NCBI GenBank assembly: GCA_016192825.1
Contig: JACPTK010000053.1
Span: 2,173-66,172 of the forward strand
Reading direction: 5' to 3'
Origin: Betaproteobacteria bacterium
GTDB taxonomy: Bacteria; Pseudomonadota; Gammaproteobacteria; Burkholderiales; SG8-41
DNA length: 64,000 nt
In this document: positions 34,575-35,320 of the stretch, one piece after another
Position numbering within the stretch: the stretch's first letter is position 1
Layout of the letters: each line of letters opens with the position of its first letter
Notes under the pieces: model-generated
Databases searched by the model: none
Seen by the model: only the letters and a program-made list of their open reading frames with translations
Told to the model about the DNA's origin: nothing
Program-made: the position numbers and the translations under genes

Positions 34575-34603
34575 TTGACGCTCGGGGTGGTTAACGCTTA
34601 AAT
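34575..34603 (+). promoter_or_regulatory. Strong sigma70-like promoter with a GC-rich discriminator (tRNA-type)
   Basis: TTGACG, a 17-nt spacer, then TTAAAT followed by TGCGCGC. It points into the tRNA-Phe array. Confidence 0.5.
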
Positions 34604-34676
34604 TGCGCGCTTCCCGGCAGGGCGGTCGCATCAGTTTGCCGGAGAATCCAGCCTCTTCGTTTTCGTGGTTCCCGGG

Positions 34677-34912
34677 GGCCAGGTAGCTCGATCATTCCGG
34701 TGCGGAAATGGTTGGCCCCATTTCCGCACAGTACATTCCCCCTCGCCCTTCGGGAGAGGGGAAGGGGTGAGGGTAAGGTAGAGCAGAGGACTGAAAGCGA
34801 GCTGCAATCTAGCTCGCTTCAGTGAAGGCTAACATTCACGGCGGAAACGCCGTTAATGTTAAGTGCCGAAAGGCGCGGCCGGAACTAAAATCTCTGTGTC
34901 AGGCGGTTCAAC
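34677..34912 (+). pseudogene. tRNA-Phe pseudo-copy 1, interrupted in the D loop and anticodon loop and truncated in the T loop
   Basis: GGCCAGGTAGCTC, then an 87-nt insert, GGTAGAGCAGAGGACTGAAA, a 90-nt insert, and AAAATCTCTGTGTCAGGCGGTTCAAC. The T-stem 3' strand and the acceptor 3' strand are missing. Confidence 0.8.
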
Positions 34913-34928
34913 GGTTTTTGCAGCAAGT

Positions 34929-35222
34929 GGCCGGGTAGCTCGATCATTCCGGTGCGGAAATGATTGATCTCACATTTCCGCACTGTACATTTCCCCTCGC
35001 CCCTTGGGAGAGGGGGAAGGGGTGAGGGTAAGGTAGAGCAGAGGACTGAAAACGAGCCGCGGACTTCGCTTCAGCGAAGTCGGACCGGCAGGTCATATGG
35101 GAGATTCATCCCCATTTGCGCGGCTCGTTTCGGCGTAGGCTAACATTCATGGGCGCAGGCCCGTTAATGTTAAGGCTGACGAAAAGTCAGCCGGCCGGAG
35201 CCAAAATCCTTGTGTCGGCGGG
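34929..35222 (+). pseudogene. tRNA-Phe pseudo-copy 2, with the same two insertion points, truncated after the T-stem 5' strand
   Basis: GGCCGGGTAGCTC, then a 90-nt insert, GGTAGAGCAGAGGACTGAAAA, a 150-nt insert, and AAAATCCTTGTGTCGGCGG. The upstream flank GCAGYAA(A)GT is also shared with copy 3. Confidence 0.8.
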
Positions 35223-35244
35223 ACCGTGTTGTGTGCAGTAAAGT

Positions 35245-35320
35245 GGCCGGGTAGCTCAGTTGGTAGAGCAGAGGACTGAAAATCCTTGTGTCGGCGGTTC
35301 AACTCCGTCCCCGGCCACCA
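35245..35320 (+). tRNA. tRNA-Phe (GAA), intact
   Basis: 76 nt: GGCCGGGTAGCTCAGTTGGTAGAGCAGAGGACTGAAAATCCTTGTGTCGGCGGTTCAACTCCGTCCCCGGCCACCA. The cloverleaf folds by hand and the CCA is encoded. Confidence 0.95.

Follow-up and report, generated by a model that had tools for sequence, protein, structure and literature searches.

Why should a tRNA gene be preceded, within its own transcription unit, by broken copies of itself? In a 64,000-nucleotide stretch of DNA from an uncultured Burkholderiales bacterium (contig JACPTK010000053.1, hereafter the window), two tandem, truncated copies of tRNA-Phe stand in front of the intact gene, each interrupted in its D loop and again in its anticodon loop. 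The initial annotation, made from the letters alone, left two explanations standing: a scar left by recurrent recombination at this tRNA hot spot, or a structured RNA.

Only one tRNA is called at the locus, Phe-GAA at 35245-35320 (+), by both ARAGORN and the Rfam tRNA model (70.8 bits). Neither ARAGORN nor Rfam RF00005 gives a tRNA hit on the pseudo-copies, even at E <= 10, which answers the check with tRNA callers and covariance models that had been proposed initially. A promoter scan of 34300-35600 found a single promoter-like site, at 34575-34604 (chance expectation 0.3), and none inside the array. The scan gives it as TTGACG-18-TAAATT, and it can also be read as the TTGACG-17-TTAAAT promoter with GC-rich discriminator described at the outset. 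The site is homologous to the promoter directly 5′ of a simple tRNA-Phe in two related loci (L120 and L122), and to the array promoters of about 40 loci. The sequence that follows it, 34605-34676, can be aligned by eye with the leaders of about 104 nt in relatives that have no unit or one (L125, L126, L130, L134, L139, L158 and L124). The order is therefore promoter-like site, two truncated copies, tRNA. As both pseudo-copies lie 3′ of the sole promoter-like site, they are almost certainly transcribed as a leader of about 640 nt, close to the ~630 nt first suggested. Features of the locus are collected in Table 1.

Table 1. Features of the tRNA-Phe locus and the adjoining island, in window coordinates
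Feature	Position	Strand	Basis or remark
Sigma-70-type promoter serving the tRNA-Phe transcription unit: TTGACG / TAAATT with a GC-rich discriminator	34575-34604	+	Promoter scan; homology to relatives
Native leader: hairpin CCGGCAGGG..GCCGG, then CCTCTTCG	34605-34676	+	By-eye alignment with ~104-nt leaders of relatives
Pseudo-tRNA-Phe unit 1: tRNA positions 1-59, D-loop insert, anticodon-loop module, ending GGTTTTTGCAGCAAGT (copy of native leader end)	34677-34928	+	No tRNA call; plan common to 30+ loci
REP/MITE-like D-loop insert, unit 1: hairpin GTGCGGAAATGG/CCATTTCCGCAC, then CCCCTC..GAGGGG..GGGGTGAGGG	34690-34776	+	Related copies in window
Structured module 1 (short-Pa type)	34791-34890	+	Covariance model R1, 99.5 bits, E = 1e-22; covariation
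Module 1 Pa	34797-34803 / 34811-34817	+	
Module 1 Pb	AGT 34821-34823 / ACT 34884-34886	+	
Module 1 Pc	GGC 34827-34829 / GCC 34878-34880	+	
Module 1 hp2 (GAAA loop)	34830-34861	+	
Module 1 hp3 (GAAA loop)	34863-34876	+	
Pseudo-tRNA-Phe unit 2: plan of unit 1, stops after T-stem 5′ strand, ending GTGCAGTAAAGT	34929-35244	+	Repeat comparison
REP/MITE-like D-loop insert, unit 2	34942-35031	+	Repeat comparison
Structured module 2 (long-Pa type)	35046-35206	+	R1 local match 35110-35206, 63.8 bits
Module 2 Pa base	35053-35061 / 35119-35127	+	Apex is a multi-hairpin junction
Module 2 3′ part: hp2, then hp3, then GGCCGGAGCCAAAA	hp2 35141-35172; GGCCGGAGCCAAAA 35193-35206	+	
tRNA-Phe (GAA), functional	35245-35320	+	ARAGORN, Rfam tRNA model
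Inverted fragment of tRNA-Phe 5′ end (acceptor strand, D stem/loop), island left edge	35333-35353	-	21 nt, 95% complementary to 35243-35263
Remnant genomic island, no integrase	35321-37181	.	Pfam; absent from relatives
DUF2924/RAMA-like protein (island)	35493-35912	-	Pfam
HTH protein (island)	36032-36529	+	Pfam
AbiEii nucleotidyltransferase toxin (island)	36268-37149	+	Pfam
Island right junction: hp3-like hairpin GGTCAAC-GCAG-GTTGACC, GGCCGAAGCT (module 3′ arm), tRNA-Phe 3′-half repeat AAAACCC..CCACCA, native flank	37154-37222	+	

The two tandem pseudo-copies reported initially are real, in their extent as in the parts that they keep and lack. The copies proper, 34677-34912 and 34929-35222, share four parts with the intact gene: acceptor 5′ strand, D stem, 5′ strand of the anticodon stem and CTGAAA(A). 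Both are without the 3′ strands of the T stem and acceptor stem, the second is also without the T loop, and each upstream unit lacks the last 17-25 nt of the tRNA. Given this 3′ truncation, splicing could not give a tRNA. The interruptions are likewise as described: AGTT of the D loop is replaced by 87 nt in the first copy and 90 nt in the second, and CTGAAA(A) is followed by 90 nt (34797-34886) or 150 nt (35053-35202) before AAAATC resumes. The flank GCAGYAA(A)GT, also noted at the outset, recurs 5′ of copies 2 and 3. Both units fold far better than shuffled sequences (z = -5.3 for unit 1 and -7.3 for unit 2).

Relatives without units reveal how the scaffold arose. Their leader ends in TTTT(C)GCAGCAAGT immediately 5′ of the tRNA; GCAGCAAGT is thus the native leader end, and plain tandem duplication explains the scaffold. 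Comparison with these relatives shows it to be a tandem duplicate of the native leader end (..TTTTGCAGCAAGT) together with tRNA positions 1-59. An integrative element in reversed orientation has been described, going by a paper title that two other papers cite, and we had considered an element of this kind as the source of the 5′ halves; the native status of GCAGCAAGT led us to drop that origin. The identical insertion points in both copies likewise reflect duplication of a clade-wide unit, not two independent hits. The anticodon-stem variant of the pseudo-copy is that of the live gene at the same locus in 24 of 25 pseudo-copies, and homogenisation seems to keep the tRNA-derived parts in step with the live gene.

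The two kinds of insert have different origins. The D-loop insert behaves as a dispersed repeat of the REP/MITE type, with several intergenic copies in one genome: its kin in the window, at 39296-39436 and 9208-9246, are 83-100% identical to it over stretches of 20-40 nt, which bears out the kinship first proposed with repeats near 39277-39440 and extends it to a further site. An insert occupies the same D-loop point only in a subset of loci (L127, L135, L137, L138, L144, L151, L153, L155, L160, L161 and L163). This pattern, in about a dozen related loci, shows the D-loop insert to be a secondary, later REP-like insertion unrelated to the sequence in the anticodon loop.

What occupies the two anticodon loops is not one insert in two lengths but two distinct variants of a single structured family. 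Members of this family, which we call modules, span some 90-160 nt. Stem Pa begins inside the pseudo-anticodon loop, the long-range helices Pb and Pc close the fold around hairpins hp2 and hp3, and the junction nucleotides AGGCUAA, GUUAAG and GGCCGRA are invariant. Module 2 can be aligned from end to end with 15 further modules of the long-Pa type.

Covariation supports this fold well beyond controls. In an unfitted MAFFT alignment of 12 modules, 92.0% of cells are paired; shuffles average 79.2%, none of 500 attaining the observed figure, and slid controls pair at 23-38%. Both sides change in 17 of 33 pairs. Among 42 model-aligned modules the paired fraction is 90.1%, with double changes in 22 of 33 pairs; the long-range pair set alone contains GC:22 / AU:14 and CG:23 / UA:9. 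Over both alignments, shuffles range from 77 to 79% and slid controls from 23 to 41%, against 90-92% observed, and the consensus structure is the same on the unfitted alignment. Whole units, folded with RNAalifold, give the D arm, a module-closing anticodon stem, Pa, Pb, Pc, hp2 and hp3. It is the tRNA strand that pairs (G:U 83 vs A:C 18 in host copies). In the 16 modules of the long-Pa set, from which the case for selection is drawn and whose hosts have GroEL proteins 82-100% identical to that of the window where visible (GroEL falls outside the locus in L124, L155 and L165), only 3% of stem cells are unpaired, 21 of 47 pairs occur as more than one standard pair type, and variability is 0.23 in loops vs 0.15 in stems. 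Host and phage copies together leave the register of the closing helix ambiguous, between Pb/Pc and a single helix of 8 bp.

The module is also confined and, as far as tested, without described equivalent. In 336 kb of host DNA, R1 matches only the tRNA-Phe leader, on the tRNA strand, and in the window just 34791-34890 and 35110-35206; no extra copy occurs in the 64-kb window or in about 270 kb of relatives' flanks, a pattern unlike that of a dispersed repeat. Beyond chance-level hits, no Rfam 15 family matches the module, whether in the window (E <= 10) or in the phage loci described below (E <= 0.1); group I introns, T-boxes, tmRNA, Y-RNA-like RNAs and known ribozymes are all without a match there. 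Literature searches found no arrangement of this kind, and the initial statement to that effect stands.

Several resemblances were considered by eye and set aside. A hammerhead core is contradicted by CUGA(A/C)AA, which is without G8/A9. Integron attC sites have only TAAC/GTTA in common with the module, and dif/XerD arms only TAACAT, a hexamer that varies. A likeness to the RfaH ops element (GGCG-TAG vs GGCGGTAG) would have the wrong orientation in phages, and group II intron domain V would require an AGC triad and a bulge that are absent. A specifier-like pairing was also rejected: the linker UUUCAG is complementary to the Phe anticodon loop but is not conserved, and type-1 modules have GUUGCGG with a GAC 'anticodon'. 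The idea of cargo insertion at G|TTAAG of hp2, in the window and L136, was abandoned, as the L136 copy may be merely diverged.

The arrangement is not peculiar to the window. A DNA-pattern scan yielded 51 related metagenome loci, 49 of them at the tRNA-Phe site and two (L141 and L142) chance matches without a tRNA, and four further loci were reached through GroEL relatives. Synteny with groEL and/or 3HCDH is visible in about 40 loci. The closest two relatives of the window GroEL are 99% and 97% identical, and no identical protein is on record. The pattern GGTAGCTC-N60-90-GGTAGAGCAGAGGACTGAA proved too loose, a genome scan with it returning only Firmicutes tRNA-Met/tRNA-Phe gene pairs. Related loci have 0-3 units, in frequencies that are biased by retrieval with a leader-specific pattern. 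These loci show that the units form a leader array across an uncultured Burkholderiales clade, common to related soil bacteria, rather than a one-off scar. A simple tRNA-Phe in relatives had been named initially as grounds for refutation; it is the case in L120, L121 and the L125 type, and not in some 30 other loci, which have one to three units. There is no trace of an array in L120 and L121 and none in L125-type loci, and L122, L133 and L135 have decayed remnants only; relatives manage with a tRNA-Phe leader of 17 nt or about 100 nt. Copy number varies among loci and promoter-proximal units are decayed. Arrays may have grown and shrunk by unequal recombination between the repeated 5′ halves, redundant promoter-proximal units then being left to decay.

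Relatives of the module also occur in phages. R1 matches IMG/VR contigs with 41-62 bits (E = 1e-8 to 1e-13), in intergenic sites of late operons, in both orientations and far from any tRNA. Fifteen phage copies were collected, one of them at 2449-2530 (minus strand) of L218. Compensatory changes in hp2 are seen in phage copies too; orthologous copies keep wobble pairs on the motif strand and have compensatory changes in place, and G:U outnumbers A:C by 26 vs 3. In two of the five phage site classes the motif runs antisense to the genes on either side, and no promoter was detected there. Host copies always lie downstream of a tRNA promoter, on the tRNA strand. An independent antisense sRNA gene in phages was considered and rejected, since in L206 and L203 the motif has neither promoter-like nor terminator-like sites beside it. 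The decoration/capsid site looks like an insertion, with about 150 nt where a related Ralstonia phage has about 9 nt. Flanking target duplications accompany the copy at L175 (+) and the second copies in L218 and L213, and L175 has two copies in opposite orientation within 2 kb.

A genuine integration scar does exist at this locus, on the other side of the gene. A direct repeat of the tRNA 3′ half at 37182-37222, with a partial module 5′ of it, closes a 1.9-kb island, and 35279-35322 is 93% identical to 37181-37224 over 44 nt. It is here only that an att-type duplication of the tRNA 3′ part is found; the upstream units repeat the 5′ part. Pfam identifies DUF2924/RAMA-like, HTH and AbiEii reading frames in 35321-37181 and no integrase gene, and in L120 and L122 3HCDH directly follows the tRNA, without an island. 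Both the inverted fragment at 35333-35353 and the 3′-half repeat had been overlooked in the initial annotation, as had the kinship of the two anticodon-loop inserts. Islands of tyrosine integrases leave duplications of the tRNA 3′ half, and the 37182-37222 repeat with its AbiE island fits this class exactly. The upstream units are unlike such scars: they duplicate the leader and the 5′ part of the tRNA, have no integrase-type arms and hold a covarying fold. L136 and L172 carry further islands with 3′-half repeats, whose att arms share nothing with the module. We thus rejected the module as an att arm of the downstream islands; only the right junction in the window holds a module fragment.

Of the two explanations offered initially, a structured RNA fits the anticodon-loop insert better, given its covariation and tRNA-strand pairing, and scarring does not explain the upstream array. 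We tentatively favour the reading that selection maintains the module as a structured RNA, which the pseudo-tRNA clamps and which arises from the pre-tRNA-Phe leader as a by-product. Lying between the sole promoter-like site and the sole called tRNA-Phe of the window, the module must be contained in every pre-tRNA-Phe transcript. The surviving D arm and pseudo-anticodon stem would clamp both of its ends, as in engineered tRNA scaffolds, where a foreign structured RNA replaces the anticodon loop; here too a structured RNA is held by an anticodon stem and served by a tRNA-type promoter. Natural tRNA-like chimeras, tmRNA and YrlA, keep the T arm and acceptor stem that are missing from the units, and without these neither aminoacylation nor RNase P recognition of the unit itself is to be expected. 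Units of about 250-320 nt, or about 170-245 nt in relatives without the D-loop insert, would be set free when RNase P cuts where the real tRNA begins and, probably, RNase E cuts within the U-rich spacer. The module would then act as RNA, and selection would keep its fold in host lineages as an accessory, dispensable, trans-acting RNA. Its phage relatives favour a protein-binding or decoy role tied to phage or mobile-element biology. We infer this RNA-level function, the processing sites and the stability of the module from sequence.

A close parallel in layout is the rtT RNA (RF00391) of the E. coli tyrT operon, whose tandem partial tRNA repeats are co-transcribed and processed to a separate RNA of unclear function. 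Both cases have partial tRNA sequences tandemly repeated inside a tRNA transcription unit. The rtT repeats, in contrast, lie downstream and contain the tRNA 3′ end, whereas the units here lie upstream, consist of the 5′ three-quarters and enclose an unrelated module; Rfam 15 has no rtT match in the window.

Several observations weigh against a selected RNA. The array is dispensable, being absent from L120, L121 and L125-type loci and decayed in L122, L133 and L135, and a selfish element would show the same variable copy number and promoter-proximal decay. The antisense phage classes, where no promoter was detected, are a better fit to a DNA-level or mobile element than to an RNA embedded in an operon. 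Host covariation could in part stem from variants brought in out of a mobile pool and not from selection in place, and gene conversion alone could explain the retained tRNA-like scaffold. The ambiguous register of the closing helix and the biased frequencies of the retrieved loci count on this side too.

A bolder form of the selected-RNA reading strikes us as rather unlikely: the module would be a new class of phage-host functional RNA on a truncated tRNA scaffold, overproduced from the tRNA-Phe promoter as a decoy or regulator of a phage or mobile-element protein (an accessory immunity or pro-phage device), or else a self-cleaving or processing ribozyme of a new kind. Small self-cleaving ribozymes and other orphan motifs are enriched in prophages (PMC5737381, PMC3088659). 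The module resembles such ribozymes in its compact multi-stem junction with invariant nucleotides and in its phage intergenic and tRNA-adjacent sites. In contrast, it matches no known ribozyme model, and on inspection its core is neither that of a hammerhead (CUGANGA / GAA / H) nor any other known core; unlike the prophage-enriched ones, it has antisense site classes.

It is possible, if somewhat doubtful, that the module is a selfish element without host function, a small non-autonomous mobile or insertional sequence that also occupies phage intergenic sites. On one or a few occasions it would have inserted into a dead duplicate of tRNA-Phe, a safe harbour where it would be transcribed only passively; the AAAA of the anticodon loop would be microhomology to its A(A/C)AA ends, and its fold a requirement of the mobility machinery or of its own persistence. 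Presence and copy number differ among close relatives, modules stand in head-to-tail tandem, older units decay, and the module 3′ arm GGA-RCY-A(A/C)AA resembles the target GGA-CUG-A(A/C)AA. Phage copies in both orientations, the insertion-like decoration/capsid site and the target duplications point the same way. Against this, the module has no extra copy in the window or the flanks of relatives, unlike MITEs or REPs, and neither a transposase or integrase nor terminal inverted repeats came to light. Among hosts whose visible GroEL is 82-100% identical to that of the window, the host-specific long-Pa apex hardly varies, only 3% of its stem cells being broken, and such invariance needs selection or very recent spread. 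Orthologous phage copies, moreover, keep their motif-strand wobbles and in-place compensatory changes.

Palindromic elements of the REP/BIME, ERIC and IS200/IS605-derived types are small non-coding structures that occupy transcribed intergenic DNA, either way round. To this class the D-loop insert belongs as an ordinary member, and the module shares with the class a GNAG 5′ of a hairpin and puzzlingly high sequence conservation. The module differs in not being dispersed in its host (0 extra hits in 336 kb), in its multi-helix junction with invariant unpaired nucleotides and in being shared with phages. Another, improbable explanation is that the module is a site acting as single-stranded DNA: for example a recognition structure for an HUH/Y1 enzyme (IS200/IS605- or RAYT-like), or a priming or recombination signal, with one strand folding where it is exposed in a heavily transcribed tRNA leader and in replicating phage DNA. 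Strand-specific pairing that tolerates G:T, independent of the direction of flanking phage genes, would suit such a site. Read directly, the modules have G(T/N)AG just 5′ of the hp2 foot, where REPs have G(T/N)AG just 5′ of the hairpin foot, and a guide-like trinucleotide 5′ of the hairpins covaries with one near the 3′ end, recalling the pairing of guide and cleavage site in IS608. On the other side, a non-systematic look noticed no HUH or transposase gene in the loci examined, the opposite copies in L175 speak against any strict bias for one replication strand, GNRA-type loops, like invariant junction purines, are seen more typically in RNA, and the element is absent from other host intergenic DNA.

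A cis-acting leader, in which the units modulate read-through, folding or 5′ maturation of tRNA-Phe, is more improbable still. Competition of the spare 5′ halves for the acceptor 3′ strand is one conceivable route, attenuation of transcription by the U-rich spacer another. The obligatory position between promoter and tRNA, the conserved tail and U-run spacer (GGCGGTTCAACGGTTTTT) and the ability of the unit GGCC(R) to pair with UGGCC at the start of the next copy are consistent with this; leaders of 17 nt or about 100 nt in relatives, unit numbers from 0 to 3, the lack of a terminator-like hairpin 5′ of the U-run and modules in phages far from any tRNA argue against it.

Bacterial tRNAs can carry group I introns of 200 nt or more in the anticodon loop, as in Azoarcus tRNA-Ile, and a structured insert near the canonical 37/38 intron position of a betaproteobacterial tRNA invites comparison. 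Unlike these, the inserts measure 90-160 nt, too small for group I, show no P3/P7 pseudoknot core, give no Intron_gpI or other Rfam hit, and sit in a truncated host tRNA from which excision would restore no tRNA. A degenerate intron, or a pure decay scar of repeated island integration and excision, is accordingly a very remote prospect: although the locus is an integration hot spot, with its 37182-37222 repeat, its island and the further islands of L136 and L172, integration duplicates the 3′ half downstream and not 5′ halves upstream, the att arms of L136 and L172 are unrelated to the module, and neutral scars would not hold 90% pairing with 22 compensatory pairs, so that covariation and clade-wide conservation already contradict a scar.

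If the module is a working RNA, it would be a natural counterpart of the laboratory tRNA scaffold, made at tRNA-promoter strength and with homologues in phage late operons. It would also add a new motif to the short list of RNAs shared by hosts and phages, as a candidate decoy, regulator or ribozyme. Should it prove to be a selfish or single-stranded-DNA element, it would be an unusually site-restricted one, for which a tandem tRNA pseudogene serves as a safe harbour. R1 provides a ready-made covariance model for genome surveys. Either way, arrays of tRNA pseudogenes beside tRNA genes need not be integration scars.

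The two units upstream of the intact tRNA-Phe gene are truncated tandem duplicates of that gene that house a conserved, strand-specific fold. Together they form an array in a region between groESL and the 3-hydroxyacyl-CoA dehydrogenase (3HCDH) gene, in a host whose GroEL shares 95% identity with its counterparts in 'Betaproteobacteria bacterium RIFCSPLOWO2_02_FULL_67_26' and other uncultured Burkholderiales. The sole tRNA called by ARAGORN and Rfam is Phe-GAA, at 35245-35320. Both units duplicate its acceptor 5′ strand, D stem, anticodon-stem 5′ strand and CTGAAA(A), and further along carry a second tRNA-Phe-derived stretch, AAAATCYYTGTGTC(A)GGCGG(TTCAAC), while lacking the T-stem and acceptor 3′ strands. 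The D-loop AGTT is swapped for an insert of 87 or 90 nt, and the anticodon loop holds an extra 90 or 150 nt, the structured insert that we call the module. One sigma-70-like site (34575-34604) lies ahead of the whole array, and the promoter scan found none inside it. Compared with shuffled controls, the two units form much better folds (z = -5.3 and -7.3). The initial annotation had described two interrupted tRNA-Phe copies here, and sequence, tRNA calls and promoter scan bear this out in every detail.

A 38-nt imperfect inverted repeat (34467-34570; AGGATTAACAGGATTAACAAGATT...), possibly another small insertion, separates the groEL terminator from the tRNA promoter, which are just ~20 nt apart in the related host locus L120. 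Phage genes occupy 26211-32086, immediately upstream of groES, where relatives have UbiD, peptidase S13, aminotransferase and 211-aa protein genes instead; this suggests that one end of a Mu-like prophage borders directly on the groESL promoter region.

Positions, loci and motifs of features in the window, the module and the phage sites
Feature	Position, locus or motif	Remarks
Phage_capsid_4 capsid protein	26651-28015	
Tape-measure-like ORF	28038-31385	1115 aa
Mor-family activator	31736-32086	
GroEL gene	32736-34373	
groEL terminator	34418-34447	
Unit 1	34677-34928	upstream of tRNA-Phe
Unit 2	34929-35244	upstream of tRNA-Phe
Island gene content	35493-37149	DUF2924/RAMA-like ORF, HTH protein, AbiEii nucleotidyltransferase toxin
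3-hydroxyacyl-CoA dehydrogenase gene	37302-38225	minus strand
Module head	(C/G)YNA(A/C)AA	
Module stem Pa		base draws on anticodon positions 36-38
Module linker	UUKNRGYGDAGG	
Module hairpin hp2	GGCUAAC...GUUAAG	
Module hairpin hp3		after hp2
Module 3′ end	GGCCGRA-RCY-A(A/C)AA	
Phage site between head-decoration and major-capsid-E genes	L206, L203, L225 and others	antisense to flanking genes
Phage site upstream of major-tail-like gene	L181, second copies in L213 and L218	antisense
Phage site after tail-module gene	L207 type	sense
Phage site between portal and protease	L175	sense
Phage site after helicase-like gene	L194	sense

The array is polymorphic within the clade. In two loci with related GroEL (L120, L121), the same promoter is followed by 17 nt and a plain tRNA-Phe, and in two others (L122, L123) a leader of ~120 nt is, by inspection, a decayed unit. 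Scanning metagenomes for the junction of leader and tRNA (GCAGYAA(N)GTGGCCRGGTAGCTC) returned 51 loci, with frequencies biased by this leader-specific pattern; 49 lie at this tRNA-Phe site. The scan loci contain 0, 1, 2 or 3 units, most with visible groEL and/or 3HCDH synteny and, where measurable, a GroEL 82-95% identical to the window's. L141 and L142, chance pattern matches in AT-rich DNA without a tRNA, were set aside as unrelated. Since the leaders of unit-free loci (L125, L126, L130, L134, L139, L158) already end in ..TTTT(C)GCAGCAAGT immediately 5′ of the tRNA, the unit scaffold is a tandem copy of the end of the native leader together with tRNA positions 1-59. Decay is common in promoter-proximal units (L132, L133, L154, L164), whereas the tRNA-proximal unit is usually intact. 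The anticodon-stem variant (GAGGA, GGAGA or GTAGA) is the same in pseudo-copy and live gene in 24 of 25 cases, and the 3′ strand beyond the insert usually agrees too. Judged by this agreement, pseudo-copies and live tRNA-Phe are in concerted evolution. Unequal recombination would drive the turnover of arrays, while the live gene would serve to homogenise their copies.

Some loci depart from this arrangement. L166 (oriented copy, ~779-880) has no tRNA called by ARAGORN, and its copy with a complete 3′ half has the D arm and anticodon-stem 5′ strand replaced (GCTCACTATTGCAATTATCCGACTGAAAATCC); its functional tRNA-Phe must therefore lie elsewhere, or the contig is chimeric. In L165 (oriented copy, ~213-460) and L136 (1771-3650), the intact gene is followed downstream by a module-bearing tRNA-Phe copy whose 3′ half is almost complete in the former and complete in the latter, where 1.7 kb of cargo (a membrane protein and a HAD hydrolase) splits the copy.

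The element inserted in the D loop is REP-like and of an ordinary sort. When the array is compared by local BLAST with the remainder of the window, this insert groups with a REP-like family that has copies at 39296-39436 and 9208-9246, and it falls within the definition of a REP, as the anticodon-loop module does not. The D loop is normal in most units of related loci; the insert, being confined to about a dozen loci, is therefore secondary. The copies at 39277-39440 and 9208-9246 (GTACATTTCCCCTCGCCCC ... GGGGAAGGGGTGAGGGT) each contain their own variable hairpin.

The genuine integration scar is the downstream 3′-half repeat, not the upstream array. Local BLAST locates a direct repeat of the tRNA-Phe 3′ half at 37181-37224, 93% identical and followed by native flank, and only this repeat, not the upstream units, fits the definition of an att scar. 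The 1.9 kb between gene and repeat is absent from relatives, encodes no integrase and has an inverted fragment of the tRNA-Phe 5′ end at its left edge (35333-35353); it is a remnant island of the classical kind found at tRNA genes. MenT proteins, relatives of AbiEii, modify tRNA acceptor ends, and the juxtaposition of an AbiEii island with tRNA-Phe may be coincidence. In L172 (oriented copy), the gene is followed downstream by three successive complete 3′-half repeats (9315, 11478, 13340), a sign that islands accreted in tandem; the arms of two resemble those of the L136 island.

We extracted 37 modules by pattern from host loci. The apex of Pa is either a small loop (short-Pa) or a conserved multi-hairpin junction (long-Pa), and modules occur in tandem within one unit in L146, L155, L157 and L172. 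Some alignments were fitted to the model, and the key pairing result stands as well when 12 short modules, aligned by MAFFT without such fitting, are scored against the proposed structure: 92.0% of cells were paired, against 79.2 ± 1.2% in shuffled alignments (0/500 as high) and only 23-38% in slid controls, with both-sided changes in 17/33 pairs. R1, a covariance model built from the module, was searched against both strands of the window and 55 loci (336 kb). Each of the 44 good matches in this host DNA has the orientation of the tRNA and falls within the tRNA-Phe leader or, in L131 and L165, shortly after the tRNA itself; the only ones in the window are at 34791-34890 (99.5 bits) and 35110-35206 (63.8 bits). 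Across the 42 best matches, 90.1% of cells are paired, double changes affect 22 of 33 pairs, and covariation extends to Pb, the long-range helix of three base pairs (AGU/ACU, GGC/GCC, AGC/GCU). Wobble G:U pairs number 83 in host copies versus 18 of the antisense equivalent A:C, and the fold therefore belongs to the tRNA-sense strand. Among 16 long-Pa modules, from hosts with GroEL 82-100% identical to the window's where visible, all but 3% of stem cells are paired, two or more standard pair types occur at 21 of 47 pairs, and loops are more variable than stems. Run on whole units, RNAalifold recovers the D arm and also shows the module closed by the pseudo-anticodon stem.

The fold family is common to hosts and phages. 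Pattern scans of IMG/VR followed by R1 gave phage matches of 41-62 bits (E = 1e-8 to 1e-13), about 15 distinct copies in five classes of site, none with a tRNA nearby. Two copies within 2 kb of each other point in opposite directions in L175, and in L225 a pair stands in tandem. The decoration-capsid gap is ~9 nt in a related Ralstonia prophage versus ~150 nt in L206, so the motif there is part of an insertion; a duplicated target sequence flanks two other phage sites. In L175 (640-830), a diverged ~50-nt duplication of the portal 3′ end (..LGLVFDSDPRHD / ..LGLIFDSDPRHD) flanks the module, so that the portal gene acquires a new C-terminal end and a stop codon that lies within the module. Phage copies are 97% paired, with compensatory changes in hp2, and in motif orientation, antisense sites included, G:U outnumbers A:C by 26 to 3. 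Their closing helix is best drawn as a single 8-bp stem (GCUUCGGC/GCCGAAGC), so the register of the closing interaction is ambiguous between host and phage copies. Neither the window region nor the phage loci match any family in Rfam 15.

From the location of the sole promoter-like site, upstream of the units, we infer that they are co-transcribed with tRNA-Phe; RNase P, acting at 35244/35245, and cuts within the U-rich spacers would release them. On a reading that we favour tentatively, the module would be a selected RNA with an accessory function at the RNA level, held in place by the pseudo-anticodon stem, expressed as strongly as the tRNA promoter allows, and probably acting in trans on a partner related to phages or mobile elements. 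Somewhat doubtful, though possible, is a selfish insertion element for which the dead tRNA-Phe copy is a safe harbour: array polymorphism, the decay of older units and the insertion signatures in phages speak for it, while confinement to one host site and strong conservation speak against it. That the module is a single-stranded-DNA site is improbable, and that the units serve as a cis-acting leader is very unlikely. A pure scar or intron is hardly credible: on the alignments, a neutral scar cannot produce the module's pattern of pairing and conservation. When compared with tRNAs, group I introns, att scars and Rfam families, the upstream units belong to none of them.

The nearest precedent for the array is the tyrT/rtT repeat of E. 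coli, in which tRNA fragments are repeated inside a tRNA operon, although geometry and content differ. A truly new host-phage RNA device or new ribozyme class would be an unlikely outcome; we rate the finding as a tRNA-fragment array and an orphan structured motif, each of a known kind, in a new form.
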